From a virus: a stretch of 64,000 nucleotides of DNA. Made by a program: the position numbers and the translations under genes. The DNA is taken from positions 18,151 to 82,150 of IMG/VR virus record IMGVR_UViG_3300036853_000417. The stretch is one strand, 5' to 3'. Of this stretch, positions 2,418 through 64,000 are shown piece after piece. Positions within the stretch are counted from its first letter, which is position 1, and each line of letters begins with the position of its first letter. The notes below the pieces were generated by a model that was given only the letters and a program-made list of their open reading frames with translations, searched no databases and had not been told where the DNA came from.

Positions 2418-3026
2418 CTATTCTTGTGAATTATCCCTTTTTAAACCAATATATAAATCATCTAATTCAGCAATCTTTCGCATATCTTCTATTCCCCAAT
2501 ACACCATTCCTTCATATTTATCAGAAATTGGAAGCAAAATAGGATGACAGAATAATCCAGTAGGTGCAGGACGATGCTCAGTTGGTACGCACTGTTTATC
2601 TAATGCTTTCTCTGACTTCGGTTTAATGATATGAAAGACATAGTGAGGAATACGTGTAAGTCGTTCAGATTTGAGATAAATTTCCCAGCACCATTGATCA
2701 ATACCTGATTGGTATCTTTTATTTTTGCGATAGTAGGAGCATTCATCTTTTTCCTTAATATCTGCAAAAAAGTGAGGAGGAAGTCCTTTAGGGGTAAGTT
2801 GTCGATTTTGATAAGGCCAAAATGCCTCAATATCTTGTACTGGCAAATTTTGCTTACAAACTTCATGAGATAAATAGAATCTTGGGCCATGTTGTTGTAA
2901 TTCATTGCTTCTACCACGATGTAGAATGACAAACTTCAGATCTTTAAGAAAGTTCGCTATTATTTCCTCCTGATTCCATGCGTGCTTTAACGTTTCTAGT
3001 TTTTTTTCGGGAGTTTCATTCCACAT
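2418..3026 (-). CDS. putative PD-(D/E)xK nuclease (restriction-endonuclease-like)
   Basis: QDIEAF...FFADIKEK resembles a D...(D/E)xK core; overlaps the end of a methyltransferase gene; AT-rich. Confidence 0.45.
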   Translation of the reverse strand: MWNETPEKKLETLKHAWNQEEIIANFLKDLKFVILHRGRSNELQQHGPRFYLSHEVCKQNLPVQDIEAFWPYQNRQLTPKGLPPHFFADIKEKDECSYYRKNKRYQSGIDQWCWEIYLKSERLTRIPHYVFHIIKPKSEKALDKQCVPTEHRPAPTGLFCHPILLPISDKYEGMVYWGIEDMRKIAELDDLYIGLKRDNSQE

Positions 3027-4620
3027 TTGCTAGTCTCCTCTGCATAGCCATAAAGAAAGTGTTATCCTTCTCAATACCAATGAACCTTCTTCGCAATTCT
3101 TTGGCTGCTGCGCCACTAGATCCCACACCAGCAAAACCATCAAAGACCGTATCACCTCGATTGCTGCTTACTTGTATCAGATGCTTTAGAACTGATACAG
3201 GCTTTTGTGTGGGATGAAGAGTATCTCCTTTAGCATCAACTATTCTTTCTTTTCCAGAACAGATTGGTGCATCAATATAATCATGCATTTCATTCTCACC
3301 CTGCCAGTTAAGTGTATGTCTTCCCTTACCTTTAGTGAAAAAGAGGATGTACTCACAGCTACTGCGATAAGTTGCTTTTACAATTTGTGGGCCTGGATTG
3401 GTCTTGTGCCATGTGATCATGACATGTACGTGTAAGTTTGCTTTTTGCAAGACTTCTCGCAAGTAAGAAACATACCAATAGGAACAAAAGACATAACCCG
3501 ATCCATGTGGACGAAGAATTCGCATCCACTCTTGTGCCCATAAATCAAAGAGTGCAATGAACTCTTTAGGGATGTATTTATCCCACGCCCCAAAGTCTTG
3601 TGAGCGGTTATTTCTACCATCAAGATCAAATTCCCGCTCATTAGCTATATTGTATGGAGGATCGGTTACAATAAGGTCAATGCTTTCATTAGCGATCTTC
3701 TTGACTTCTTCATAGAAATCACCATGAATCAGAGAAATGCTATTCTTCTGTTCATACTCATCGCGTATCGAAGCAATCAGCTTTTGCAACTTGGGGTGTG
3801 TCTCTTGCTTCCAATCAGCATCATATGCCCCACTATATACCTCATCGATAAGTTGCGTTGTGTATGTATCTCCTAGTGATTCGATCTGTTCTAGTGCATA
3901 TTTCTTCATCTGGTTACGTGCTTTGTAGTTTCCAGCTAGAACTTTGAATTTTCCTTTAGAAAAGTTAGAATTAGTAATCAGTTCTTGAACCAGCTCCAAT
4001 TGTTGTGAGGGCGTGAGGTCAAGAATTGAGCGGAGTAAGTTTTCTGTAAAGGGGGCGGTCGCCCCCTCAAGGGGGGCGACACCATTTTCCTCACCAGGGG
4101 CGGCACTCTCAAAAGTCGCCCCTATCATACTCCAAGCCTCTTTCTCTATTTTTCTGAGAGCAGCGTAGTCCTTCACACTCTCCTTATTCCATCCAAGCAT
4201 CTGTCCAACATCAGCTTGTGTATATTTCTTCTTCCCCTGTTCATCCTCTTCTTCCAACCTTGCCCAAATAAACTCAGCATAGGTAACTAGTGTTGATGGG
4301 ACAACCGTCTCAGCAGCATTGTTGCACTGCATTGCCATCTGATAGAATTCAGCTTCTGTGAATCCAGATTTAACTACGCAAGGGACAGAGATTATATCTA
4401 GTCCTTTAGCCGCCTCATGGCGATGATTGCCATCTATGAGAAGATAACCATCTTCATAAGGAGTCACTGTTAAGGGGTAATTCTCTAAAAAACCTGCCCA
4501 ACGCATACTTTCCTGTAAACGGGCAATACCAGATGCGCTGAGTCTACGCACTGATAATTTAGATATAATTTTATTTAGAGGAAGTATTACAAAATGAGGA
4601 GTTTCAACTTCAGTTGTCAT
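3016..4620 (-). CDS. ParB-like N-terminal domain fused to N6/N4 DNA methyltransferase (beta class)
   Basis: LLIDGNHRHEAA (ParB), TDPPY (motif IV), HPTQKP, DGFAGVGS (motif I). Confidence 0.9.
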   Translation of the reverse strand: MTTEVETPHFVILPLNKIISKLSVRRLSASGIARLQESMRWAGFLENYPLTVTPYEDGYLLIDGNHRHEAAKGLDIISVPCVVKSGFTEAEFYQMAMQCNNAAETVVPSTLVTYAEFIWARLEEEDEQGKKKYTQADVGQMLGWNKESVKDYAALRKIEKEAWSMIGATFESAAPGEENGVAPLEGATAPFTENLLRSILDLTPSQQLELVQELITNSNFSKGKFKVLAGNYKARNQMKKYALEQIESLGDTYTTQLIDEVYSGAYDADWKQETHPKLQKLIASIRDEYEQKNSISLIHGDFYEEVKKIANESIDLIVTDPPYNIANEREFDLDGRNNRSQDFGAWDKYIPKEFIALFDLWAQEWMRILRPHGSGYVFCSYWYVSYLREVLQKANLHVHVMITWHKTNPGPQIVKATYRSSCEYILFFTKGKGRHTLNWQGENEMHDYIDAPICSGKERIVDAKGDTLHPTQKPVSVLKHLIQVSSNRGDTVFDGFAGVGSSGAAAKELRRRFIGIEKDNTFFMAMQRRLANVE

Positions 4621-4628
4621 ATCTCTCC

Positions 4629-4850
4629 CTATTCACTACTATGCTTACACTGCCCTCTCACTGCATCAATGGCATATCGAAGAGCCTCAACAGTCTCACG
4701 GTTAGTTGGGAAATCATCCTGAAATGAGCGAGGAGTTAGCATTTCTACAAGCCATTGATAGCGCTTTATTATACGTATCACGTCTAACAGCACTCGTATA
4801 GAATGCTCAGCTTCGCTTAGTGGGCGTATATCTTTTGTTTTATCGCTCAT
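4629..4850 (-). CDS. hypothetical protein
   Basis: ORF; likely start MSDKTK after a GAGGAG RBS. Confidence 0.5.
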   Translation of the reverse strand: MSDKTKDIRPLSEAEHSIRVLLDVIRIIKRYQWLVEMLTPRSFQDDFPTNRETVEALRYAIDAVRGQCKHSSE

Positions 4851-4854
4851 TTCT

Positions 4855-5331
4855 TTATTTCTCCTCAACAATATCAATATCACTTCTAACAAAATGTGTA
4901 CTAAAACAACGGAAAATATCCTCTGTACAGAGTCCAAGTGTGTTCCCATACCCTTCTGTGGCTGGCTTACTATCCCTCACCTCGCGCCAGTATTCTCCTG
5001 CCCGACCCTCTAATTGCTCAACCGCAGGACAGAGCATATTGCGTTCATAGTTTGGCTCCATGATTGAACCATAAAGCCACTCCTCAATGTCTTCTGCATT
5101 GCGGTATGAGAGGTAGAGTGCAGCCTGGTAAAAAAGCATCTTGTGGAGCATTTTTTCATCTGCAATTAAGAATTGCCTCAGAAGTGCCAGATCAAATTGC
5201 TTTACTTCCTCATCGTTGCCCGACCTCGTAATGGGTGTGTCGGACACACATATGTCAAGATACAACGTTACCCGCAAACGTCGCCTGAGTAGCTCATTAT
5301 CTTGTTGTGCATCGTTTGCTATACCTATCAT
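4855..5331 (-). CDS. hypothetical protein
   Basis: ORF; likely start MIGIAND after an AAGGAG RBS. Confidence 0.55.
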   Translation of the reverse strand: MIGIANDAQQDNELLRRRLRVTLYLDICVSDTPITRSGNDEEVKQFDLALLRQFLIADEKMLHKMLFYQAALYLSYRNAEDIEEWLYGSIMEPNYERNMLCPAVEQLEGRAGEYWREVRDSKPATEGYGNTLGLCTEDIFRCFSTHFVRSDIDIVEEK

Positions 5332-5521
5332 AGTGTTGTCTCCTTGTCGTGATGAGTTTACGAGATATCTGGACGGCTTTTTCAGATACATTTGGGGTCT
5401 CTCTCTTATTATAGATCCTCTACCGAACACACAGGAAGGAGTTTCCTCATTGTGTTGTACGGATAATCAGACATGCTGTATACTGGTATCAGACAGATGA
5501 TTTAGAGAAAATAGGGGATGA

Positions 5522-6184
5522 ATGATTAACCTTGTTGCTAAGTCGATAGATATCCTACAGGCTCATCCACGCAATTACCGTATCCATCCTGAGGATGAAA
5601 TTGAGCATCTCATGGAGAGTATTCGTCTACATGGCATCTATCGCAATATTGTCATTGCACAGGATGGAAAGACGATTCTGGCTGGACACGGAGTTGTAGA
5701 AGCTGCTCGTAGACTTGGGATGACACAGGTCCCTGTGTTTCAGACAAACTATCAACCTGATGATCCACATGCTTTAAAACTGCTGGTTGGTGATAATGAG
5801 ATCCAGCACCTTGTTGAGGCTGATGATAGGGCACTCACGGAACTCTTACGTGAACTGAAAGAGATTGATGACCTACTTAGCACTGGTTATGATGAGATGA
5901 TGCTTGCTAATCTCGTCATGGTCAGTCGGCCTGCATCTGAGATTACCGATCTGGATGCAGCCTCACAATGGGTAGGACTACCTGAGCATGATAGAGAAGG
6001 AGAGCGCCGACTTCAAATTATCGTGAACTTTGCCAATGAGGAAGACCGCAAAGCATTCTGTCATCTGCTCGGCCTTGAGTCCAGCAAGATTGCAAATGAA
6101 GGAACAGGAAAGTCTATCTGGTGGCCGAAGCAAGATCGAGATGATGTGAAATCCCTTCGCTTTACTGATGGGAGACAAGGATGA
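5522..6184 (+). CDS. ParB-like nuclease domain protein
   Basis: HPRNYRIH...ILAGHGVVEAARRLG...VGDN. Confidence 0.85.
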   Translation: MINLVAKSIDILQAHPRNYRIHPEDEIEHLMESIRLHGIYRNIVIAQDGKTILAGHGVVEAARRLGMTQVPVFQTNYQPDDPHALKLLVGDNEIQHLVEADDRALTELLRELKEIDDLLSTGYDEMMLANLVMVSRPASEITDLDAASQWVGLPEHDREGERRLQIIVNFANEEDRKAFCHLLGLESSKIANEGTGKSIWWPKQDRDDVKSLRFTDGRQG

Positions 6185-7140
6185 CTCACCGAATACTCCC
6201 AAACTATCCTATCTATATTCCCAGCAAAGGTCGTGCTGATTGCTGCTATACTGCCAAATGTCTTGATGCTGGTGAAGTTCCATTTCATCTCGTTATTGAA
6301 CCACAAGAAGAAGCTCTCTATCGGGTGCAGTTCCCCAGTGCTCATTTTCTAATTCTCCCCTGGAATGGTGATGATCAGGTACGACGTGATTTCTGCCAGC
6401 AACGTCGTATTGAGAATGGGGGCCTCATTGCTGCACGCAACTGGATTAAAGAGCATGCCACAGCAACAGGCAGTGAAAGACATTGGCAGTTAGATGACAA
6501 TATCACAGAGTTCTATCGGCGCTACAAGGGTAAGCGTATCCGATGTGAGTCGGGTCTTGCACTACGTGCCTGTGAAGACTTTACTGACCGTTATGAGAAT
6601 GTTGCGATCTCAGGTCTCAATTATTATATGTTTGTTATGGATGATAAGCAGACATCTCCACTTGTTATTAATTGTCATGTGTATTCTTGCTCCCTGATCC
6701 TGAATGCACTTCCCTTCTGCTGGCGTTTGGCCTACAATGATGATACGGATATATGCCTGCAAGTCCTCTCAACAGGGATATGGTGTACGGTACTCATCAA
6801 TGTCTTCATGTGTAGGAAGTTGCGCACAATGACTGTACAGGGTGGCAATACTGCTGATCTCTATCAAGGTGATGGACGATTGCATATGGCGCGTTCACTT
6901 GAACGGGTATGGCCAGGCATCGTTGAAACAAAGCGTCGTTTTCATCGACCACAACATGTCATAAAAGAGAACTGGAAATGCTTTGATACTCCGCTTCGAT
7001 TGAAACCGGACATTGATCTAACACAACTTCCTCCAACCAATGAATATGGGATGGATCTTTGTCAGATCAAAGATGTAATCAAAAGTCCCCGAATCCAAAG
7101 ATTACATGATGCATGGCAACAGACACATAGATCTGAGTAA
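6181..7140 (+). CDS. TET-associated glycosyltransferase (TAGT/GREB1-like, GT-A fold)
   Basis: IYIPSKGRA, ARNWI, WQLDDNI, YNDDTDICLQ and GGN motifs. Confidence 0.8.
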   Translation: MTHRILPNYPIYIPSKGRADCCYTAKCLDAGEVPFHLVIEPQEEALYRVQFPSAHFLILPWNGDDQVRRDFCQQRRIENGGLIAARNWIKEHATATGSERHWQLDDNITEFYRRYKGKRIRCESGLALRACEDFTDRYENVAISGLNYYMFVMDDKQTSPLVINCHVYSCSLILNALPFCWRLAYNDDTDICLQVLSTGIWCTVLINVFMCRKLRTMTVQGGNTADLYQGDGRLHMARSLERVWPGIVETKRRFHRPQHVIKENWKCFDTPLRLKPDIDLTQLPPTNEYGMDLCQIKDVIKSPRIQRLHDAWQQTHRSE

Positions 7141-7300
7141 GGATTTCTTATTATGAGGGGCAATTTTATCTTTAGTGATGCATGGTCTTTTTCACAAAAA
7201 GTGAGGTTTGCATGGCAAAAATGCCATTGTTGAAGTTGCCCCTTGAATAGTGCTGGTATGCTCTGTATACTTATAGTAGATTACTGGAAAAGAGGAAAAA

Positions 7301-7885
7301 GTGGACAGGGGAAATTCATCACTTTTCGTTCTTGGCGCTCCTGGGACTGGAAAATCAATCCTGTTACGTTCTTTTCTTCAATCCCTCGGATCTTTTGGAG
7401 AGTCTTATCAGTACAACCTGATTACCGGACAATGGTTTTCTGACTATTCATTGTTGGTTTTGGGAGAATATGTATCTGAGGAATCCTTTCCCGGCACTGA
7501 TCGCTGGTCAATGGAGGTACAACGGTGTGCAGCAGGATTTTGGCAGGACATTGCTCAACAATCTTGTACAGTTCTTGGTGAGGGAAGTCGCATTGCAACA
7601 CGTCCCTTTATTGATGCGGCACGTATCTCTACGCTGGTCTCTCTTGTTTTCTTACAGGTACACACTGATATTCTACAGGCACGCAGGGAATGGAGAGGAA
7701 AGCAAAATGCATCCTGGGTGAAAGGGATAGAGACACGCATAGAGAATCTTCAGCACTATTATCAAAATCAATTGCCCTGTTTTACCTGGAAGAATGAAAC
7801 AGACCAGGACCTCACACGCAATCTGAATGCATTGCATACAATGTTATTTAGCTCGATGTCTGTACATATGGAGGACCTATCATGA
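7301..7885 (+). CDS. P-loop nucleotide kinase of DNA-modification clusters
   Basis: Walker A GAPGTGKS, FPGTDRWSM, EGSR. Confidence 0.75.
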   Translation: MDRGNSSLFVLGAPGTGKSILLRSFLQSLGSFGESYQYNLITGQWFSDYSLLVLGEYVSEESFPGTDRWSMEVQRCAAGFWQDIAQQSCTVLGEGSRIATRPFIDAARISTLVSLVFLQVHTDILQARREWRGKQNASWVKGIETRIENLQHYYQNQLPCFTWKNETDQDLTRNLNALHTMLFSSMSVHMEDLS

Positions 7886-8688
7886 GTACTACAGTTGTTA
7901 CCCATAAAACGATTCCGCTTTCACTCATTGATACGCACGCTCGTAATTATCGCAAGCATCCTCCTGCACAATTAGAGAGGCTGCGTGCCTCGCTTATCCG
8001 ATTCTCGCAGGTGCGTTCTATCGTCGTGCAGGCAAAAGAAGGTGGTCGCTACAGGATACTGGCAGGGCATGGAGTTGCATCGGCTGCACTTGAATGTGGA
8101 ATTCTCAAGCTGCATTGTAACGTTGTTCCTGACAACTGGGATGAGGGGACCTGTAATGCATATCTTGTTGCTGATAATGAGGTTGAACGAGGGGTGGATC
8201 TTGATAATCAACTTTTAGCTGAATTGCTGAAAGAGCAGGTGGATGCTGGATACTCGCTAGATGCATTAGGTATTCAAGAGAAAGAATTTACTGATCTTTT
8301 GCAAATACTCCAGGAATCTGATCGTGCTGTCCCGTCTTTTGCTGAACTTGAAGAAGAGGAGGAGGATGTACGACAGTCGATGACCCTTCCTCAAGGGAGA
8401 ACTGCCGATATTGTGAACTCTAAGAATATCAATCAAAAAGGAGATGGTGTTGCATTCGGGAGAGATCCAAAGCAATGGTTGCAGCAGTATGAAACAACTA
8501 TGCTACGACAGATAGTTCTCATCTATAAAAGCGATGAATATACACGTGTTTTAACCCAATTTATGGCTATTCGTCGCCAAAATAATCTGGAAACAAATGC
8601 CGATGTTGTAGGAGAACTTCTTTCATTTTATTTAAAGAGTCATCCAGAACTTGAAGAGGAGGCAAAGCAATATGCCTCTTCAGTCTGA
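7882..8688 (+). CDS. ParB-like nuclease domain protein
   Basis: HARNYRKH...ILAGHGV...LVADN; paralog of 5522..6184. Confidence 0.85.
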   Translation: MSTTVVTHKTIPLSLIDTHARNYRKHPPAQLERLRASLIRFSQVRSIVVQAKEGGRYRILAGHGVASAALECGILKLHCNVVPDNWDEGTCNAYLVADNEVERGVDLDNQLLAELLKEQVDAGYSLDALGIQEKEFTDLLQILQESDRAVPSFAELEEEEEDVRQSMTLPQGRTADIVNSKNINQKGDGVAFGRDPKQWLQQYETTMLRQIVLIYKSDEYTRVLTQFMAIRRQNNLETNADVVGELLSFYLKSHPELEEEAKQYASSV

Positions 8689-9526
8689 GCCAAGAGTCAT
8701 CACTCGACCAAGACGTGAGCTTGATCTCAAGTCATATCGTTTTCGGAGAGCAGAGATACGTGACTATACAGAATTGTTGACCTCTTCCACTATTTTGCGA
8801 GATGAAGCTAGTGGAAGAGTGCGTGTTGTTTATCTCGTATTATCTGATGATTGTAATGAGATTGTCCAGTCACTGCGCTCTATTCAATTTGAAATAGATG
8901 AGCGTGCATCAGGAATGCTTTCTCAATCTCGGATATTTGGATATCGTCCAAGAATTACCATTCGAGATGATTTTTGTACGACTGCTGCTCTTGCTCGCGA
9001 GCATCCTTTTGCCTACAAACTTATTTCTTCCTATGCAGCAAAGGTTTCAGATTACTACCATCAGTTCAATCCTGAGTTGTTTATAGAACATCAACGGATA
9101 GTAGGTCGTGTGCTTCCTGAATGGAGGCTGGAGGGATCGGTTTTTACCTCTGGAATTATTAATAAGAATAATCCTTTGCCTTATCACTTTGATCAAGGAA
9201 ATTTTCAGGATGTTTGGAGTAATATGCTTGTTTTCAAGCACCAAATAGGAGAGGGGTATCTTTCTGTTCCTGAATATGACATTGGTTTTGAGGTAGCACA
9301 TAATTCTCTTCTGATGTTTGATGGGCAAAACATTCTACACGGAGTAACACCTATTTATTTAGAAGGACCTGAAGCTTTTCGTTATTCCATCGTTTACTAT
9401 AGCTTAAAATCAATGTGGAATTGTCTGTCTCCCGATGAAGAGGTGAGGCGTATTCAACGTTTGCGTACCTCTCGTGAAGAAAAAAGATTTTTCAAATATC
9501 TTCCACCAAAGGAGATGCCAGAATGA
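8672..9526 (+). CDS. TET/JBP-like 2OG-Fe(II) 5-methylpyrimidine dioxygenase
   Basis: FTSGIINKN, HxD (YHFDQGN), distal His (HGVTPI), RYSIVYY; ATG 8672 after GAGGAGG. Confidence 0.85.
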   Translation: MPLQSEPRVITRPRRELDLKSYRFRRAEIRDYTELLTSSTILRDEASGRVRVVYLVLSDDCNEIVQSLRSIQFEIDERASGMLSQSRIFGYRPRITIRDDFCTTAALAREHPFAYKLISSYAAKVSDYYHQFNPELFIEHQRIVGRVLPEWRLEGSVFTSGIINKNNPLPYHFDQGNFQDVWSNMLVFKHQIGEGYLSVPEYDIGFEVAHNSLLMFDGQNILHGVTPIYLEGPEAFRYSIVYYSLKSMWNCLSPDEEVRRIQRLRTSREEKRFFKYLPPKEMPE

Positions 9527-10419
9527 TCATGTCTGCAAAGGTATTTGAGGATTTTGCATTCTTCTGTCAGCATCAACTTGTGAGTAAAGATGTTGATCCC
9601 GTCTATCCATTGTTGCGGTTGCTGGTATCTCCTCTCTTGGAGGAGCAGGCACTCTGGCACACACTCCTCTATGTTGGATATTACTCTCTCCCTTCATCTC
9701 GTGCCGCTTTTGATCGTGTTCCCAGTGTTGATGCACTTCCCTTGTCCCTGTCACGTTTACCAACTGGGGTAGAGCGAAGAGGATTTCGTGGAGGAACCAT
9801 TACCAGGCATGTTGATAGCTTGCTTTATTTGCACGAGACATTTGGAAGTTTGAAAGCATGGCTCTGTCAGGAATTTGGGAGAGACATACGACAGAACTGG
9901 ATTCATTTACAAAATACCCTGCAGCAGGCATGGGGGAATGGACGGTGGGCTGCTTATAAGACCGGAGAAATTTTACAGAAAGTCCATGATTTTCCAGTGC
10001 AGCCAACAGATATGGGACATGAGTTTTCAACGGGTCCTCGTCATGGTCTTGCCCTTTTCTATGGGAATGCTTGGGGGAATGCTCCTGATGCTATTCAAAC
10101 ACTGAATGCTCAGGGAGAAAATCTCCTACAGTGTCTTGCAGAACAAGGGATACACATGGGCATAGAGCAGTTAGAGACAATGCTCTGTGATTTTTATTCC
10201 CTGGTAGGGGGACGCTATTATGTTGGTCATGATATTGATATGCTACAGACACAATTACTTGCCTCCTCTCTTTCATCAGATATCCTTGAACCTATCTGGC
10301 AAGCAAGAAAAAGAGCATTACCACACGCATATCTGGGAGAAATACAAGGCTGGACAGGAATTGATAGGGAGCGGAAAAAAGTGTATCAAAGAACAGGAAG
10401 GGTGATTATTCGTGGCTAA
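9523..10419 (+). CDS. aGPT-Pplase2-like amino acid:DNA transferase (helix-hairpin-helix fold)
   Basis: DVDPVY, GNGRWAAYK, GPRHGL, ETMLCDF and YYVGHDID motifs. Confidence 0.75.
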   Translation: MIMSAKVFEDFAFFCQHQLVSKDVDPVYPLLRLLVSPLLEEQALWHTLLYVGYYSLPSSRAAFDRVPSVDALPLSLSRLPTGVERRGFRGGTITRHVDSLLYLHETFGSLKAWLCQEFGRDIRQNWIHLQNTLQQAWGNGRWAAYKTGEILQKVHDFPVQPTDMGHEFSTGPRHGLALFYGNAWGNAPDAIQTLNAQGENLLQCLAEQGIHMGIEQLETMLCDFYSLVGGRYYVGHDIDMLQTQLLASSLSSDILEPIWQARKRALPHAYLGEIQGWTGIDRERKKVYQRTGRVIIRG

Positions 10420-11302
10420 ACAGTGTCACCTTGTGGGTATGGGGCTGACTGGAGCGATGGTTGCATGGATACTCTATCAACATGGCTATACATTCACATG
10501 GGAGGATAATGACCAATCTGTTTGTGCCTGGAAAGCTTCAACAGGACTGATTTACCCTTGTGGGGATGACGGAGAAATGAAAGCATACTCTATCTGGAAA
10601 CAATGGCATGGAGGAAGAGCATCCTGGTCTGGTTGCCAGGTAATTGAAAAATGTGTAGAAGCTGGATCATTCTGGTTTGTGACGAAGAATCCTCCCCACG
10701 GGGGAACCTATTCAATTGAGCGCTCAATTGGATTGCTGCATCTTGCCTCTCTTTCATCATATCACTTGAATGTTCAGCATTTTGTGCGGCAAACCAGGCA
10801 GATATTTTCTGCTTGCCGCAAAGATAGATCTCATGGTCAGATCATTATTGCGAATGGATATGGATCACGCCTCCACCATTATCTTTGGGGCTGGTCTGCT
10901 CGCGTTCACCTCTCTTTTTCACAGGATTTGCTCAATGCTTCCCCATTGCGTCCAACATTCTATTTACGTCGCTCACGTTATCAATTTGGATATGCCAATA
11001 TCATTCCTGGGGAATCTGTCTATTATGCAGGTTCATCCCTCATTCATCAGGCTGAACCAAAATCCTTGAATATTGATTCTAAATATGAACGATGGAAACA
11101 ACATGTATTTGATACAACTGGAGGCAAGATATGTGTAACAGGTGTTTTGGACAGGCAAGAAGGATGGAGACCTGTATCAGACAAGCAAGATCTCGCATGG
11201 ATTACACAAGAGAATGGGATGCTGATCGTGCGCCCAATGGGTAGCTCCGGGGTCCGTCTTGCCCCATTGCTATGTGAAGCATTGCTTAAAATACTGGGAT
11301 AG
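10412..11302 (+). CDS. FAD-dependent oxidoreductase (DAO/glycine oxidase-like)
   Basis: N-terminal GMGLTG Rossmann motif, ASTGLI, EGWRP, GSSGVRLAP. Confidence 0.75.
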   Translation: MAKQCHLVGMGLTGAMVAWILYQHGYTFTWEDNDQSVCAWKASTGLIYPCGDDGEMKAYSIWKQWHGGRASWSGCQVIEKCVEAGSFWFVTKNPPHGGTYSIERSIGLLHLASLSSYHLNVQHFVRQTRQIFSACRKDRSHGQIIIANGYGSRLHHYLWGWSARVHLSFSQDLLNASPLRPTFYLRRSRYQFGYANIIPGESVYYAGSSLIHQAEPKSLNIDSKYERWKQHVFDTTGGKICVTGVLDRQEGWRPVSDKQDLAWITQENGMLIVRPMGSSGVRLAPLLCEALLKILG

Positions 11303-11311
11303 GGGAAAGAT

Positions 11312-11845
11312 ATGCGCGAAACACCTGATTCAGCTTTGGCATTTGAGCGATATTATGACCTGGGAGAGGATCGTACCTTAGCCCTTCTTGCCCAAAAAAT
11401 GCGTCAGGAAATGATCAGACAACAACAGATCCTGAGGGATACCAAACCCATACCAACAGAAGCAACACTGCTCTCTCGTTATAAGAAATGGTCAAAGGCA
11501 CACAAATGGCAGGAGCATGTCATTCAGCGTGACCGCGCACAGGCAGAAAAGGACCGTAAGAAGAGGCTAAAAGCCATAGAGCAGATGAATGATGAACATT
11601 CACTGTTTGGACGAACACAGGCAATGCAGGCAGTAAGACAAATCAAAGAATTGATTGATGCAAAGAAACTTGGGGCGCCTGCAGCAGTGCAGCTCTTTAA
11701 ATATGCAACCGATCTGGAACGGGTAGCGCGGGGGGCTGCTACCGAAGTGGCACATCTTCAGCATACAGGTGAAGAAGGTGGACCAATTGTCATTAAGACC
11801 GAATGGGGGACGGTAAAACTTGATCGCAATGAAGAGGAGATATAA
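11312..11845 (+). CDS. terS: terminase small subunit
   Basis: AFERYYDLGEDRTL...KWSKAHKW, C-terminal HTGEEGGPI; directly upstream of TerL. Confidence 0.7.
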   Translation: MRETPDSALAFERYYDLGEDRTLALLAQKMRQEMIRQQQILRDTKPIPTEATLLSRYKKWSKAHKWQEHVIQRDRAQAEKDRKKRLKAIEQMNDEHSLFGRTQAMQAVRQIKELIDAKKLGAPAAVQLFKYATDLERVARGAATEVAHLQHTGEEGGPIVIKTEWGTVKLDRNEEEI

Positions 11846-13182
11846 TGCCTACTGCTACTCGCGAGTATCGCGTTCGGCTCTACACTCCTCATCCAGGTCA
11901 AGTCCCTCTCCATGAAAGTCGGGCGCGTTTTCGTGTGATAAATTGCGGCAGAAGATTCGGGAAAACGTATTTCGCCGCGAATGAAGAATGTAAGTTTGCC
12001 CTTGACCACAATGATGTTCTCTGCTGGTGGGTAGCTCCAACATATAGACAATGTAAGATTGCCTATCGTTTGATGAAGAGAGCCTTAAAAGAGGTGCTGG
12101 TCAAGCATAGTGATACGGATCTTCGCTTAGAAATCATCAATGGTTCTGTTATCGAGTGTCGGTCATGCGATAAACCAGACAACCTGCTTGGAGAAGGTAT
12201 ACACCTGCTCGTCGTTGATGAGGCCGCCATGCTTCCAGATAGCACGTGGTTCAATGTGCTGCGTCCCATGCTTTCAGACACAAATGGGAAAGCTATCTTT
12301 ATCTCAACACCCAAGGGTCGCAACTGGTTTTACACGATGTACTTGCGGGGGTTGGACCCACTTCAGAAAGATTATGAGTCCTTTACCAGGCCCACATCCG
12401 CCAACCCCTACATTGATCCAGAAGAAATTGCGCATGCAAAAGAAGATTTGCCAGAGGATGTCTATGAGCAAGAATACCTGGCAGAATTTAAGGAGAATGC
12501 AGCGGGCGCGTTTCGGGGGATTGATGCCTGTATTGAAGGAGAGCTACAGGAGCCTCGCCCTGGAGTCATTTATGAAATTGGGTATGATGTAGCCAAGCAT
12601 CGGGATTTTTCAGTGATCACGGTGCTCAATACTTCAACACAGCATGTAGACTGGTGGTACAGGGTCAATCACGTGGATTACGTTGTTCAAGTCCAAGATT
12701 TAAAAGATATTGCAATGCGCTATAATAATGCGCACGTACTGATGGATGCTACCGGCGTTGGGGACGCGGTGATGGAGATGGCACGCCTGGTTGGGGTCAC
12801 TGTTGATGGATTTCTCTACACCAATACCTCTAAAACCAATCTTATTGGTGATCTGATTGTGGGTATCCAGCACCGGGCCATTACATTTCCTGATATTCCG
12901 GTACTGGTCGGGGAGCTACGTGCAATGCAGGTCAAATATTTACCAAGTCGTCTGGTTCAATATGAAGCCCCTCCCGGCTATACGGATGATGGAGTGCATT
13001 CACTGGGTCTCTGCTACAAAGCAGGTGCAACAGGTGGTACAATAGCCTTATCATCTTCTCATCAGGACAAGGGTGATGAACTTCCTGTACAACATCAATC
13101 TGATGATGATCTGATTATGGAGCGCCAGGCGCAGATGGCAAGATTGCTTGGACGTGTTCGTATTACATCAACATTTGGATAG
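11845..13182 (+). CDS. terL: terminase large subunit
   Basis: GRRFGKT Walker A, LVVDEAA Walker B, STPKG motif III, GYDVA and DD nuclease acidic residues. Confidence 0.95.
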   Translation: MPTATREYRVRLYTPHPGQVPLHESRARFRVINCGRRFGKTYFAANEECKFALDHNDVLCWWVAPTYRQCKIAYRLMKRALKEVLVKHSDTDLRLEIINGSVIECRSCDKPDNLLGEGIHLLVVDEAAMLPDSTWFNVLRPMLSDTNGKAIFISTPKGRNWFYTMYLRGLDPLQKDYESFTRPTSANPYIDPEEIAHAKEDLPEDVYEQEYLAEFKENAAGAFRGIDACIEGELQEPRPGVIYEIGYDVAKHRDFSVITVLNTSTQHVDWWYRVNHVDYVVQVQDLKDIAMRYNNAHVLMDATGVGDAVMEMARLVGVTVDGFLYTNTSKTNLIGDLIVGIQHRAITFPDIPVLVGELRAMQVKYLPSRLVQYEAPPGYTDDGVHSLGLCYKAGATGGTIALSSSHQDKGDELPVQHQSDDDLIMERQAQMARLLGRVRITSTFG

Positions 13183-13184
13183 AC

Positions 13185-14939
13185 TTGTACAGATGTGTGG
13201 AGAACGTGGTGAGTAGGAGACGATACAAAAAAGCAAAAAAAGGAAATTGGCAACATCTTATTGAGAATGAAGAGTTGCGTACTGCATTCTTGCGCTTTGC
13301 ACGAAGTATTCATACAGCAGAGGAATCGGCAGAGCAGATAGCAGTGCGTGCTGGCCGACCTGCTTCACAGTTTATCGATTTACGCGAGGCTGGTCGTATT
13401 CTGGACCGATATCCTCAGTTATCTGGTTATCTCTTGAGTATTCGAGAACGCCAGGAAGAGCTACAAGATGCTCAAATGAGGCATAAAGAATCCCCCACAC
13501 ATGAAGTATCTCAGGCTGCGGCGCTTGGAGGATGGGCAGGATATCAAAATGTGACACCACAGGGAGTCCCTAATGCACGTGCCTTGCGCAATTTTGCAGA
13601 TGAATGTGAATTTGTAGCGGCAAGTATTAATCATTATTGTGATCGTATCAGCAGATTTAAACTAACGGTACTCCCCATCGATGAACAAAAACCATATAAT
13701 CGCTCAGTTGAAAAAGAGATGATTGCGCTTCTTGAAAATCCTAATGAACTGGGAGATACCGTTGCTGATATTGTAAGTACCATCACTCGTGATTATCTTA
13801 CCATTGGACGCGGCATTATCAGCAAAGCAATGTCAGTGCGGCGCATTCCTACAACGCTCTATATGGAGGATGCAGCCCTGTTTCGGATTGATCCAAAGTG
13901 GAGTGGAAATGCTGAAGAACCTCGCTATCTCTACCAACCAAATTCACAGACAAAGATCCCACTACGCAATGATGAGATTATTTGCTTACTTTGCGGTCCA
14001 TCCACCTTTCGTCTATCATTTTCTCCTGTCCAGATCTTGAGAAACACCATTCTCTCTGACCTCAAAGCGACAGAGAGCGCATCCCGACTGGTCGAGCACA
14101 AACCTCCTCCTCACCTTGTTCAACTGCCAGGAGCCAGCGCAGCACAAATTGATCGTTTGCGATCAACCTATGATGCAGATATTGCAGGACATCGTGAGAT
14201 CATGTTTCTGGGTGGCCCTAACCCGGCGCAGATCAAACCGATGATTTTCTCATTGCGGGACAATCAGTGGATGGAGTGGCTTGAATATCTGGCACGCAAA
14301 ATAGCTGTTGTGTTTGGACTGTCTATACAAGATCTTTCCTTCACCGGAGATGTCAACAGGGCAACCGCAACCAGCCAGCAAGAGCTATCAGAAAGCAAGG
14401 GACTTATCCCACTGATGCTTCGTATTGAAATGTATTTCCATCATCATCTTCTTTCAGATTTTGCTCCTAAGCGAAATGGTATTCCAGATATGCGTGCGCT
14501 CAACTTACGTGTTGCATATCCTGAGATTGGAGAAGCTATGCGTATGCTTCATGTAGAGCAAACAATCCATCTGGCAACAAAAAGTCTTGCTGGTCTTCCC
14601 TCGCAAACGCTCAATCAGGTGCTCACTGCGCAGGGGTTAGAGCCTGTGCCAGGAGGAAATACTTTTTATCTCAAAACAGCAACCGGCGCTATTCCCTGGT
14701 TGTCTTATGACAATGATTTTGGTCCGACCATTCAGGAGAATCCAACAGAAGAAGAGAATAATTCTCAAAATCCCACGAATGAAGAGGAGAACAAGAGCTA
14801 TCGCACCCCAAAGCGAGCAACCATTCAAAAATCACATCCATATGATAAGGAGGCACGCGATACTTTGGGTACCGCAATAGAACATATTTTCCACTCGATA
14901 GAAAAGCAAGGATCAGAGCAATTGAGGAGGCTACAATGA
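13185..14939 (+). CDS. portal protein
   Basis: follows TerL; NPN...SPVQ...ARKIAVVFGL...NRATA portal pattern; real start probably GTG near 13209. Confidence 0.85.
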   Translation: MYRCVENVVSRRRYKKAKKGNWQHLIENEELRTAFLRFARSIHTAEESAEQIAVRAGRPASQFIDLREAGRILDRYPQLSGYLLSIRERQEELQDAQMRHKESPTHEVSQAAALGGWAGYQNVTPQGVPNARALRNFADECEFVAASINHYCDRISRFKLTVLPIDEQKPYNRSVEKEMIALLENPNELGDTVADIVSTITRDYLTIGRGIISKAMSVRRIPTTLYMEDAALFRIDPKWSGNAEEPRYLYQPNSQTKIPLRNDEIICLLCGPSTFRLSFSPVQILRNTILSDLKATESASRLVEHKPPPHLVQLPGASAAQIDRLRSTYDADIAGHREIMFLGGPNPAQIKPMIFSLRDNQWMEWLEYLARKIAVVFGLSIQDLSFTGDVNRATATSQQELSESKGLIPLMLRIEMYFHHHLLSDFAPKRNGIPDMRALNLRVAYPEIGEAMRMLHVEQTIHLATKSLAGLPSQTLNQVLTAQGLEPVPGGNTFYLKTATGAIPWLSYDNDFGPTIQENPTEEENNSQNPTNEEENKSYRTPKRATIQKSHPYDKEARDTLGTAIEHIFHSIEKQGSEQLRRLQ

Positions 14940-17023: not shown

Positions 17024-17783
17024 GTTTTTCAAATCTATCTATGTATTGCGCTTCTTTGCCCCATATAGAGCGATGACAAGATACACACAATGTTATTCCA
17101 TTAGTAATATCAAGAATACGTTCAGGACATTCTCTGACTGGATGTATGTGATGTGCTTGTATGTCTCCATTGCTAGGCTTATTGCACATTTGGCAGGTAT
17201 AATTATCACGTTCATATACAGATTTGCGCCAGTCTTTGTACTCAAATTGACCATGAATAATAGCTCGATATTTAGTAATTCCTCCATTTTTCCAATTAGG
17301 ATGAAGATGTTGACGATATTTTCCTTTAAGGCTGCTAGAAATCTTTTTACGGGTAGTATCAGCAAGCTTGGCCCCGTATCGTGGGGAATTCTCTCCTATA
17401 CGGCTTTTTGCATAATCACTCAATTCTTGTTTACGTTGAGCAGACAAGGGAATACCCTTGTTCCAACCAGCACATTTTTCAGTTTTATCTCGAATTGGAA
17501 TTTCGTATTCATGCAACAATTTACTAATACTACTTTCAGACGAACCCAGTTGACGCCATATAGTATCTATACTCAATTCCTGATTTACATACAGTTCATG
17601 CAATTGTTCTTTACTAGATGCCACAGGACGTTGTGCAAGATGCCTGTCACGAATGGGAATATCATATTTTCTCAACCAATTACTAATAGTTTGGCTAGAA
17701 TTGACTCCTACAAGTGCAGCAATTTCAACTGTGGTCAAATTTTCAGTAACATACAAATTATACAAAGTGTCTTTGTCCAGCAT
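16998..17783 (-). CDS. homing endonuclease (HTH + NUMOD3-like + HNH) inserted in reverse orientation
   Basis: TRKKISSSLKGK, ERDNYTCQMC...AHHI...NGITLCVSCH; own AAAGGAG RBS. Confidence 0.85.
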   Translation of the reverse strand: MLDKDTLYNLYVTENLTTVEIAALVGVNSSQTISNWLRKYDIPIRDRHLAQRPVASSKEQLHELYVNQELSIDTIWRQLGSSESSISKLLHEYEIPIRDKTEKCAGWNKGIPLSAQRKQELSDYAKSRIGENSPRYGAKLADTTRKKISSSLKGKYRQHLHPNWKNGGITKYRAIIHGQFEYKDWRKSVYERDNYTCQMCNKPSNGDIQAHHIHPVRECPERILDITNGITLCVSCHRSIWGKEAQYIDRFEKLIHVHPPN

Positions 17784-17796
17784 GGGAGGCTCCTTT

Positions 17797-18831
17797 ATGC
17801 AGTACCATAACTTTCCTAATTATAACACAACAGAAGAAATTATACAAGTTACTGTATATGGAAGAACGTTAAATCTTATCAGACGTAATGGGAGATTTGT
17901 GAAACCTATTGAACTAAAAGAACTAGAAGGGAATGGGACTGGGATGAAGCCCTCTCATGAAGTATGGTGGCTGGCGCGTGCTCCTCTTTCAGAATCTACT
18001 GTAGCTGCTAATGTCCTAAAACATGGTACTGGTGCACTCAATATTGATGCCAGTCGAGTCTCATATGTGAGTGAGAAAGATGGACAACCTAAAGATTATA
18101 GCAATAGCAAAGGGATAGGAACCTATCAGGAAAGTTGTAAAGAACAGGGTGCCCGCAAATACGCAGATGGTTTTTCTTATCTTAAAAATAACTTTGTTGC
18201 ACAGACTCCTGCCAATGGTCGATGGCCTGCTAATCTTCTGTTTTCTCACACTTTATTTTGTACTGAGGAGCAATGTACAGAAGATTGTCCGATAGTGCTA
18301 CTAGATAAACAGAGCGGGGTGAGGAAAAGCGTAAGAAGCCTAAGAGGCGGTGTGAAGCTCACCGGGACAACGTATAGCCCTCGATTTAAGCAAGAAATCA
18401 GCGAATATGAATGTGGCTACAATGATCAAGGTGGAGCTTCCCGTTTCTTTCAGCAATTTTACTACTGCCCTAAAGCTTCACAATCTGAAAGAGAATCAGG
18501 TTGCGAACATCTTTCTGAGCACAATGGATTTGATAAAAACACCAGTAAGCAGATAGCGCACATCAATCACGAAACAGGGAATACGACCTATTCAGAGTAT
18601 TCCCCAAGTGTGCGTAAAAATAATCATCCAACGGTAAAGCCTGTAAATCTTTTGAAGTATCTTATCAGGATGATTACGCCTCCTGGTGGAACAGTTCTTG
18701 ACATGTTTGCAGGAAGTGGGAGTACTGGGCTGGCAGCAATACAGGATGGATGTACCTTTATTCTCATTGAAAAAGAGATTGAGTATGTAGAGATTGCACG
18801 TGCAAGGATAGCCGCTATCCAGAATGGATGA
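17797..18831 (+). CDS. N6/N4 DNA methyltransferase, C-terminal half (split gene)
   Basis: GTGMKPSHE...LARAPL, GRWPAN, NHPTVKP, DMFAGSGSTG; GGGAGG RBS at 17784-17789. Confidence 0.85.
   Translation: MQYHNFPNYNTTEEIIQVTVYGRTLNLIRRNGRFVKPIELKELEGNGTGMKPSHEVWWLARAPLSESTVAANVLKHGTGALNIDASRVSYVSEKDGQPKDYSNSKGIGTYQESCKEQGARKYADGFSYLKNNFVAQTPANGRWPANLLFSHTLFCTEEQCTEDCPIVLLDKQSGVRKSVRSLRGGVKLTGTTYSPRFKQEISEYECGYNDQGGASRFFQQFYYCPKASQSERESGCEHLSEHNGFDKNTSKQIAHINHETGNTTYSEYSPSVRKNNHPTVKPVNLLKYLIRMITPPGGTVLDMFAGSGSTGLAAIQDGCTFILIEKEIEYVEIARARIAAIQNG
17819..17847 (-). promoter_or_regulatory. sigma70-type promoter for the HNH gene, lying inside the MTase C-half coding start
   Basis: TTGTAT-17-TATAAT with TG extension on the minus strand. 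Confidence 0.55.
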
Positions 18832-46852: not shown

Positions 46853-47695
46853 GTGATACAAAAACCTCGTTTGCTTGATCTTTGCTGTAAGGCTGGTGGG
46901 ACGTCGGTTGGGTATGCGCGTGCTGGTTTTGAGGTTGTAGGTGTGGATATCGAATCACAACCGAATTATCCCTATACGTTCTACCAGTCTGATGCATTAA
47001 CTTTTGACCTGATAGGTTTTGACGTTATAGCGGTTAGTCCCCCGTGTCAAGGTTATTCACAGTCCAGTTACTTCCACAAGGGAGCTAGGGCAAAACATCC
47101 TTTGCTTATAGGTGCATTCCGTGAACGTTTACAAGTTTCTGGATTGCCTTACATTATCGAGAATGTAGAGAAAGCTTTACTCGATATGCGCAACCCTATT
47201 CTGCTTTGCGGTGAAATGTTTGGATTGCGAACATATAGACATCGACTTTTTGAGAGTAACATACTGCTTTATGCTCCATATCATCCCCCTCACATTATGC
47301 CAGTAGCAGGACCAGGGGCTATAGCAAGAGCAGGGGAATATTGGAGTGTTGGCGGTCACTTTGGACAGAAAGAGAGAGCACAGAGGGAAGCATTAGGAAT
47401 TGATTGGATGAAGACAACTGAAGAGATAGCAAACGCGATACCTCCAATTTATACGGAATGGATAGGCTTACAAGTTCTTCAGGCATTGAGTAAGCGTCGT
47501 CAAGAGGTGCGAATACAGTTATGTGAGTGTGGATGCAGAAGAATAGCCAAACCAGCTAACAGCAGGGGAAGGCCAGGAAAGTATGCATCAGATGCTTGTA
47601 GAGTACATGTAAATCGGGCAAAAGGGGTGCATGTTACGAAACTCGCAAAGGTCGTTACTGGTCACTCTATGAAAATTTTACACGATTCTGAATAG
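46853..47695 (+). CDS. C5 cytosine DNA methyltransferase-like protein with C-terminal Zn ribbon
   Basis: DLCCKAGG (I), SPPCQ (IV), IENV (VI), RHRLF (VIII); CECGC...SDACR tail. Confidence 0.8.
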   Translation: MIQKPRLLDLCCKAGGTSVGYARAGFEVVGVDIESQPNYPYTFYQSDALTFDLIGFDVIAVSPPCQGYSQSSYFHKGARAKHPLLIGAFRERLQVSGLPYIIENVEKALLDMRNPILLCGEMFGLRTYRHRLFESNILLYAPYHPPHIMPVAGPGAIARAGEYWSVGGHFGQKERAQREALGIDWMKTTEEIANAIPPIYTEWIGLQVLQALSKRRQEVRIQLCECGCRRIAKPANSRGRPGKYASDACRVHVNRAKGVHVTKLAKVVTGHSMKILHDSE

Positions 47696-63858: not shown

Positions 63859-63927
63859 TGCAACGTGTTCCATAACCTGGGGATTCTTTGTTCAATCCCA
63901 GGATTGAATGGAGTATCTTGTTGAAAC
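63859..63927 (-). ncRNA. putative tracrRNA anti-repeat region
   Basis: 17/19 inverted match to the repeat 5' half (63859-63877), plus GAATGG (63906-63911) and TGAAAC (63922-63927) segments separated by a hairpin. Confidence 0.55.
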
Positions 63928-64000
63928 CAGACTCAGTTCTTCGGAACTCCGTTAGAAGCGAATATATAGGTACCATAGAGTGCGTGGCCAGCTCGATGCG

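Follow-up and report, generated by a model that had tools for sequence, protein, structure and literature searches.

A probable operon for post-replicative thymine hypermodification in a temperate phage, located directly upstream of the terminase genes

In the published pathway of thymine hypermodification, a P-loop kinase first adds a phosphate to 5-hydroxymethyl-deoxyuridine (5-hmdU) in DNA; glycine or serine then takes the place of this phosphate in a reaction of the amino acid:DNA transferase (AADT, formerly aGPT-Pplase2). The PaMx11 base is finished by the flavin enzyme gp47 and the acetyltransferase gp48, and metavirome contigs have been described which have no dUMP hydroxymethylase and, in its stead, TET_JBP beside the thymine-hypermodifying genes (Lee 2021, PMC8989533). 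The structures of PaMx11 gp46 and gp47 have been solved and their catalytic residues named (Wen 2024, PMC11472151). In this work, we present a comparative analysis of a seven-gene operon at positions 5522-11302 (+ strand) of a 64,000-nucleotide stretch of viral DNA (hereafter the window), which covers bases 18151-82150 of the 82,150-bp IMG/VR record IMGVR_UViG_3300036853_000417. The operon combines a TET/JBP dioxygenase, a P-loop kinase, an AADT and a flavin adenine dinucleotide (FAD) oxidase with a glycosyltransferase and two ParB-fold proteins.

Phage TET/JBP enzymes of clade C1 oxidise thymine, and a large part of them needs a co-encoded ParB homologue to work on double-stranded DNA (dsDNA); GATases, P-loop kinases and AADTs are 'consistently linked' to these ParB-dependent enzymes, the commonest neighbours are glycosyltransferases, ParBs and terminases, with terminases located beside 19% of pathways, and the phage thymine dioxygenases of that study oxidise 5-methylcytosine (5mC) too, in vitro (O'Toole 2026, PNAS, PMC13229309). 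ParB, terminase, P-loop kinase and aGPT-PPlase genes had been seen earlier in TET contigs (Burke 2021). GT-A phage glycosyltransferases of the type present in our operon put sugars on 5-hydroxymethylcytosine (5hmC) in DNA and bear a resemblance to the glucosyltransferase of base-J synthesis.

Compared with these systems, the locus is best described as an operon, composed of two mobile modules and presumably co-expressed with the packaging genes, by which a temperate phage probably hypermodifies thymine after replication. Its seven open reading frames (ORFs), all of them open, are as follows.

5522-6184, + strand: ParB1, protein with a ParB/Srx fold, at the head of the operon and paired with TAGT (phrog_620, E = 4.6e-25)
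6181-7140, + strand: TAGT, TET-associated GT-A-like DNA glycosyltransferase (PF20691, E = 1.5e-38; phrog_842, E = 3e-33)
7301-7885, + strand: P-loop nucleotide kinase 3, predicted kinase of 5-hydroxymethyluracil (5hmU) in DNA (PF18751, E = 1.3e-8)
7882-8688, + strand: ParB2, predicted cognate activator of TET (phrog_620, E = 2.9e-23)
8651-9526, + strand: TET/JBP (5mYOX) Fe/2-oxoglutarate (2OG) dioxygenase, predicted thymine dioxygenase (PF12851, E = 4.2e-10)
9523-10419, + strand: AADT, amino acid:DNA transferase (PF18724, E = 9.7e-18)
10412-11302, + strand: FAD amine oxidase of the GR2 (D-amino-acid-oxidase/glycine-oxidase) fold, 296 aa (fold and GxGxxG motif)

An earlier, sequence-only reading of the window had described seven packed genes directly upstream of terS/terL, and their coordinates, strand and overlaps were confirmed. 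The identities it gave to the genes were all correct: Pfam and PHROG profile searches name six of the seven, and the remaining one, the oxidase without any match, is named by the fold of its AlphaFold2 (AF2) model. The seven genes are translationally coupled. Overlaps of 4 nt occur at 6181/6184, 7882/7885 and 9523/9526, the AADT/oxidase junction is an 8-nt overlap (10412/10419), and ParB2 and TET overlap by 38 nt, or by 17 nt if TET starts at ATG 8672; the sole gap, of 160 nt, lies between TAGT and the kinase (7140-7301). A decayed or inactive cassette was ruled out, since all seven frames are open and the catalytic motifs intact. No match was returned when the operon was compared by Megablast with 50,697 phage records, and a promoter/terminator scan of positions 4600-11900 returned no more sites than shuffled sequence.

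The first step of the predicted pathway depends on TET and ParB2. TET scores 39.5 bits against PF12851 (cut-off 34.9; 40.7 bits in the genome-wide search), and its true start is probably ATG 8672, because its relatives begin at the equivalent methionine. In a five-member alignment of the window TET and its four closest relatives (A2), H179-x-D181, H230, R244 and C258 are invariant, and the iron triad and 2OG-binding arginine (H179, D181, H230, R244) are complete. Behind C258 there is a conserved charged tail of about 30 (about 33) residues, in which E264, R267, R272, R275, E276 and R279 are invariant among the relatives. An extended C-terminus past the last conserved cysteine has been reported only in ParB-dependent T-dioxygenases (O'Toole 2026, PMC13229309); by its tail and its ParB partner, as compared with the published descriptions, our TET likely belongs to this subclass. 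A phmmer search of TET against PDB sequences gave zero hits, and the PHROG family it matches, phrog_6059, bears the misleading label 'queuine tRNA-ribosyltransferase'.

The AF2 model of ParB2 is composed of a nucleotide-binding domain (residues 1 to about 85), helices (88-148), a disordered stretch (150-191) and a helical C-terminal domain (196-267). In the structure search residues 3-145 match CTP-binding PadC (Z 12.7) and KorB-CTP (Z 11.3); for the C-terminal domain only small dimerisation modules came up, as weak matches, and a helix-turn-helix domain was not among the hits. ParB176 has been described as nucleotide-binding and C-terminal domains joined by a disordered linker, without a classical DNA-binding domain (O'Toole 2026, PMC13229309), and the modelled architecture of ParB2, its linker of about 40 residues included, appears to match this description. 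In all related loci (L004-L008), the gene just upstream of TET is a ParB gene. The N-terminal half of ParB2 is also homologous to the ParB domain of many ParB-methyltransferase fusions in databases.

The 5mYOX176/ParB176 systems thus share several traits with our operon: ParB directly upstream of TET, a similar ParB architecture, the C-terminal extension of TET, a linked P-loop kinase and AADT, terminase neighbours and no adjacent C5 methyltransferase. The operon differs from them by a second ParB, TAGT and an oxidase of D-amino acid oxidase (DAAO) fold, and by having no GATase.

Formation of the handle on the polymer agrees with the search for pre-replicative genes. The absence of a dUMP hydroxymethylase and of a canonical HMUDK, already stated for the window, holds across the whole 82-kb record, in which profile searches detected no thymidylate-synthase-like gene, ThyX, HMUDK (PF18748) or HMUDK_hel (PF18723, the former aGPT-Pplase1); as a positive control, the same method recovers the TET of the record. 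No DNA polymerase was found among the 50 record ORFs scanned against Pfam, which fits DNA that is modified only after replication.

The amino acid transferring enzyme can be compared with PaMx11 residue by residue. The AADT scores 65.2 bits against PF18724 (ADDT; cut-off 26.2) and matches PDB 8z2m, the PaMx11 gp46 glycinyltransferase, with E = 5e-4. In gp46, Cys247 is catalytic, Glu243 and Thr244 are metal ligands, and Asp24, Trp146 and Lys150 contact glycine (Wen 2024, PMC11472151). Ten of the 12 active-site and pocket residues checked are kept, among them all the catalytic and glycine-contacting ones: gp46 D24, Y47, Y51, E92 and W146 correspond to D25, Y50, Y54, E84 and W142 of the AADT, and K150, E243, T244, C247 and D262 to K146, E218, T219, C222 and D237. 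The other two are changes in the phosphate pocket, K261 to H236 and E265 to M240.

The oxidase located next to the AADT has zero Pfam or PHROG matches. It begins with a GxGxxG motif, and its AF2 model, built on an alignment of homologues (22 of them), has a predicted local distance difference test score (pLDDT) of 94.8. Its structural matches, with Z of 20-23 over about 272 residues, include D-amino acid oxidase, glycine oxidase, sarcosine oxidase and the MnmC FAD domain, and Foldseek aligned the model to the PaMx11 NGTO structure 8z2o (E = 5e-10, TM 0.61-0.63). The GWRP arginine is invariant in the family; it sits at the place where, we presume, the DAAO/ThiO fold binds the substrate carboxylate. 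Sequence comparison gave a different result: the family profile found among PDB sequences a marginal Rossmann match alone (6pxs, E = 0.21), hhalign of the family with gp47 aligned only the first 32 residues, which form the FAD-binding beta-alpha-beta unit (probability 24%), and phmmer with gp47 found no member of the oxidase family (A1). As gp47 homology is missing, an NGTO-like reaction is read from fold and gene position only.

The gene position is consistent. In the 16 distinct IMG/VR loci that the oxidase profile retrieved, in L007 and in the phage CaiB, the AADT directly adjoins the oxidase wherever the flank is present; L042 is cut on the AADT side. Eight loci (L035-L041 and L047) contain, in this order, AADT, oxidase, a gp49-like kinase, a gp50-like helical protein and a gp51-like hydroxymethylase, with no gp48-like acetyltransferase, and in these PaMx11-type cassettes the A1 family fills the slot of gp47 (NGTO). 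Since the oxidase always adjoins the AADT and takes the gp47 slot, we read the two as a constant unit, predicted to add an amino acid and then trim it. The unit which makes the handle can, from the same comparison, be read as exchangeable, being either hydroxymethylase, HMUDK and HMUDK_hel or ParB, TET and the PF18751 kinase. The pathway is assembled from exchangeable modules of two to five genes, and an AADT-linked FAD oxidase family, missing from Pfam and PHROGs, takes the place of NGTO in both pre- and post-replicative cassettes.

The same core is present in cultured phages. Close relatives of TET (53-59% identity) are accompanied by ParB, AADT, oxidase and kinase, and by no TAGT. The oxidase was found in the Gordonia phages CaiB, CloverMinnie, AnarQue, MossRose, MakoManhole, Wooper and LittleMunchkin, and also in Rhodococcus phage Tonitrus. 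In CaiB (ON108644.1, L008:1-3926) genes 1-5, at the left genome end and directly upstream of the terminase, encode ParB, TET, AADT, PF18751 kinase and oxidase; gp4 matches PF18751 with E = 7.8e-59, and the core genes are labelled only 'oxidoreductase', 'hypothetical', 'adenylate kinase' and 'oxidoreductase'. The other phages listed have the oxidase match at about the same position, 3.0-4.6 kb. The Gordonia phages of this group (genus Sourvirus: CaiB, CloverMinnie, AnarQue and relatives) appear to share the five-gene core with our operon at 30-38% protein identity, and differ from it in gene order, in having a single ParB and in the lack of TAGT. A literature search found no report on the DNA chemistry of these phages; we predict that their DNA is hypermodified, and the virion DNA offers a direct check on the predicted base. 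A 327-kb contig, IMGVR_UViG_3300028800_000001 (L004/L034), possibly a jumbo phage, carries a cassette with two TET paralogues, 59% and 50% identical to the window TET, and three consecutive ParB genes.

Like the oxidase, the kinase is distinct from the corresponding PaMx11 protein. It scores 35.1 bits against PF18751 (cut-off 27) and has the Walker A motif GAPGTGKS; a comparison with PaMx11 gp49, the proven 5-HMUDK, gave no useful similarity. Gp49 matches PF18748 weakly, below the cut-off, gp50 matches PF18723, and neither of them matches PF18751, a family for which no characterised member was found. The kinase may still act like a 5-HMUDK. The PHROG family it matches, phrog_800, is labelled 'terminase small subunit', which is misleading; PaMx11 gp49 (L009:39217-39786) bears this same label in RefSeq.

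As a whole, the PaMx11 5-AcNmdU pathway (gp46 AADT/PUGT, gp47 NGTO, gp48 acetyltransferase, gp49 and gp50 5-HMUDK, gp51 dUMP hydroxymethylase) resembles our operon in having an AADT with the same catalytic residues followed directly by a compact GR2-fold FAD oxidase. It differs in that the handle is made at the nucleotide level, whereas here TET and ParB are predicted to form it on the polymer; in addition, our kinase belongs to PF18751 and has no HMUDK_hel, the oxidase has no gp47 homology and there is no acetyltransferase. An acetyl-capping step was considered and rejected, as the only GNAT hit in the record was below threshold and located inside terL.

On this basis the following route can be proposed. 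TET activated by ParB2 would oxidise thymine in dsDNA to 5hmU, as shown for its relatives. The PF18751 kinase, judging from its position and from the analogous characterised step, would phosphorylate the hydroxymethyl group to give 5-phosphomethyl-deoxyuridine. The AADT would displace the phosphate with an amino acid, likeliest glycine, yielding N-alpha-glycinyl-thymidine, from which the DAAO-fold oxidase, according to its fold and synteny, would cut the C-N bond of the adduct by oxidation and release glyoxylate, leaving 5-aminomethyl-deoxyuridine (5-aminomethyl-dU). With no acetyltransferase present, 5-aminomethyl-dU is the expected end point; its assignment as the main product is tentative, somewhat short of an even chance. 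In the weakest step, ParB1-TAGT would glycosylate some of the 5hmU in a manner similar to base J, or 5hmC at the sites of the C5 methyltransferase encoded elsewhere in the record. Glycosyl-5hmU is possibly an additional product, and a branched pathway with sugar and amine arms is possible. We infer the substrates of each enzyme, the amino acid, the final base and the role of TAGT in the pathway. The order TET, kinase, AADT and FAD enzyme, proposed in the sequence-only reading as an entirely post-replicative pathway, is supported; it is not new, and given the TET-started pathways already published (Lee 2021, PMC8989533; O'Toole 2026, PMC13229309) the post-replicative route is an existing model. 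What is new here is the junction of two modules, described below, and the AADT-linked oxidase family. None of these results overturns current understanding; the operon offers a complete and intact example, from a temperate phage, of a thymine hypermodification route that starts with TET.

Several observations weigh against this route. Outside the FAD-binding unit the oxidase is not homologous in sequence to NGTO, the kinase is unlike the proven 5-HMUDK of PaMx11 and belongs to a family with no characterised member found, and conserved glycine contacts do not establish specificity for glycine. The record encodes a C5 methyltransferase, and the enzymes of O'Toole oxidise 5mC in vitro. Finally, ParB1-TAGT pairs occur in complete genomes without a detectable TET or ThyA-like gene.

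The last observation bears on the alternative that survives best, in which two independent systems share one operon: the core hypermodifies thymine, and ParB1-TAGT glycosylates another acceptor, in DNA or elsewhere, as the pairs in TET-less phages would have to do. TAGT scores 133 bits against PF20691 (cut-off 27.5), and in 12 relatives its R86, D105-D106-N107 and E132-D133-F134 show little or no variation. These motifs resemble the published R...DDD...EDY/F pattern that T. cruzi JGT shares with phage GT-A DNA glycosyltransferases, with Asn instead of Asp at the third acidic position. ParB1 matches PF02195 with 24.7 bits, slightly below the cut-off. The relatives of TAGT (39-71% identity) are located in 24 loci, none of which has TET, AADT, kinase or oxidase, and in at least 14 of these IMG/VR loci (L010-L023, for example L010:7312-9059, L016:7279-8813 and L017:7324-8906) the TAGT homologue has a ParB1 homologue (50-63% identity) immediately upstream. 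The pair usually adjoins a terminase gene, and the terminase types vary (Terminase_3, GpA). In five parent records of such pairs, three of them rated 100% complete (41-90 kb), PF12851, the TET-family profile A2 and PF00303 gave zero matches; a relaxed TET search across all TAGT loci found nothing, and TAGT was absent from all sampled relatives of TET or of the oxidase. ParB1-TAGT is therefore an independent mobile pair, placed here ahead of the core cassette, and the operon joins two separately mobile modules, ParB1-TAGT and kinase-ParB2-TET-AADT-oxidase.

As ParB1-TAGT pairs occur without a detectable TET, the dependence of the pair on the TET product in this operon is in doubt. On the other side, the Pfam family of TAGT is defined through its association with TET, the GT-A phage glycosyltransferases of its type act on 5hmC in DNA and are similar to the base-J enzyme, and TAGT here lies 1.5 kb from TET in the same operon. 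Moreover, 'TET-less' means that no TET was recognised, and standard profiles miss many divergent 5mYOX enzymes (O'Toole 2026, PMC13229309). Taken together, two unconnected systems seem to us rather unlikely, and the thymine hypermodification operon with TAGT as a possible side arm is preferred. Base J synthesis (JBP1/2 and JGT) is a parallel in so far as a TET/JBP thymine dioxygenase is paired with a JGT-like GT-A glycosyltransferase; it differs in that our glycosyltransferase has its own ParB, sits beside a competing kinase/AADT route and has close relatives in phages with no recognisable dioxygenase. In phages without a recognisable TET or ThyA-like gene, no acceptor for the sugar of ParB1-TAGT is apparent.

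ParB1 could be a dedicated ParB-fold activator or targeting partner of TAGT, as ParB176 is for its TET; we regard this as quite doubtful. If true, dependence on ParB would be a device in general use among phage enzymes that modify DNA after replication, and this phage would hold three ParB devices: ParB1-TAGT, ParB2-TET and a ParB-methyltransferase fusion. The TET-less ParB-TAGT pairs would then act on an undescribed acceptor or beside an undescribed handle-making enzyme, and the DNA of this phage would bear two different thymine hypermodifications.

A second alternative retains the outline of the pathway and changes its product. The base would be an undescribed one, formed by an AADT which uses a non-glycine amino acid or an amine and by an oxidase with a different reaction, for instance deamination to a keto-acid adduct, and it would possibly be glycosylated. 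The lack of homology between the oxidase family and NGTO, the two substitutions in the phosphate pocket of the AADT and the kinase family other than that of proven HMUDKs all favour it, and without an acetyltransferase the end point differs from that of PaMx11 in any case. Nevertheless, the three residues corresponding to the glycine contacts of gp46 (D24, W146, K150) are all kept in the AADT, and the replacement of gp47 by the A1 oxidase in otherwise PaMx11-like cassettes argues for the same job. We judge such a base unlikely.

The third alternative is a cytosine pathway, in which a C5 methyltransferase makes 5mC, TET converts it to 5hmC and TAGT (perhaps also the kinase and AADT) acts on the latter, as in the clusters of Burke 2021. 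It draws on one further gene of the record.

46853-47695, + strand: short C5 cytosine DNA methyltransferase, 280 aa (PF00145, E = 3.1e-5; phrog_363, E = 1.2e-32)

This gene is intact, reaches 24 bits against PF00145 (cut-off 22), contains motifs I (DLCCKAGG), IV (PPCQ) and VI (ENV) and ends with a Cys-rich tail. It could supply 5mC to TET as a second substrate; the in vitro activity of phage T-dioxygenases on 5mC and the 5hmC acceptor of characterised GT-A phage glycosyltransferases point in the same direction. The gene is located, however, amid tail genes 36 kb downstream of the operon, and there is none adjacent to TET, whereas clades A/B have an adjacent one. TET has a ParB partner and the C-terminal tail of the T-dioxygenase subclass, the characterised AADTs and NGTO all act on thymidine derivatives, and the core cassette also stands beside the terminase in cultured Gordonia phages. 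A cytosine pathway is thus very unlikely, and thymine remains the preferred substrate of the core.

Directly behind the oxidase the operon continues unbroken into the packaging genes.

11312-11845, + strand: terS, terminase small subunit (phrog_6299, E = 3.5e-16)
11845-13182, + strand: terL, terminase large subunit (PF03237, E = 3.7e-15; phrog_2, E = 7e-47)
13185-14939, + strand: portal protein (PF04860, E = 3e-20)

The placement ahead of terS/terL is real and recurs in CaiB and in the ParB-TAGT loci. The idea that the ParB proteins couple modification to packaging is not supported: the only role shown for such a ParB is activation of its cognate TET on dsDNA. Late co-expression is a simpler reading of the proximity to the terminase.

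Upstream of the operon and downstream of the packaging genes, the window contains two further DNA methyltransferase genes.

3016-4620, - strand: ParB_N - N6/N4 DNA methyltransferase fusion (PF01555, E = 6.7e-38; PF02195, E = 4.8e-4)
17653-18831, + strand: second N6/N4 DNA methyltransferase gene

The fusion is divergent from the operon and is the third ParB-domain DNA modifier of this phage.

The termini of the record are an exact 127-bp inverted repeat (genome 1-127 and 82024-82150, the latter being window 63874-64000), and its ends are possibly an assembly artefact. On the 5' side of the window the record contains an integrase (genome 14493-15641), then TerC, an HD-GYP/LuxR regulator and a CRISPR array (genome 8712-9700). 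With an integrase and a flank of this content, the record looks like a prophage with host DNA attached. The array has about 14 repeats with a period of about 74 bp and lies in the flank together with the TerC and HD-GYP/LuxR genes; the best match of the HD-GYP/LuxR gene, at 31% identity, is in a Chloroflexota metagenome-assembled genome.

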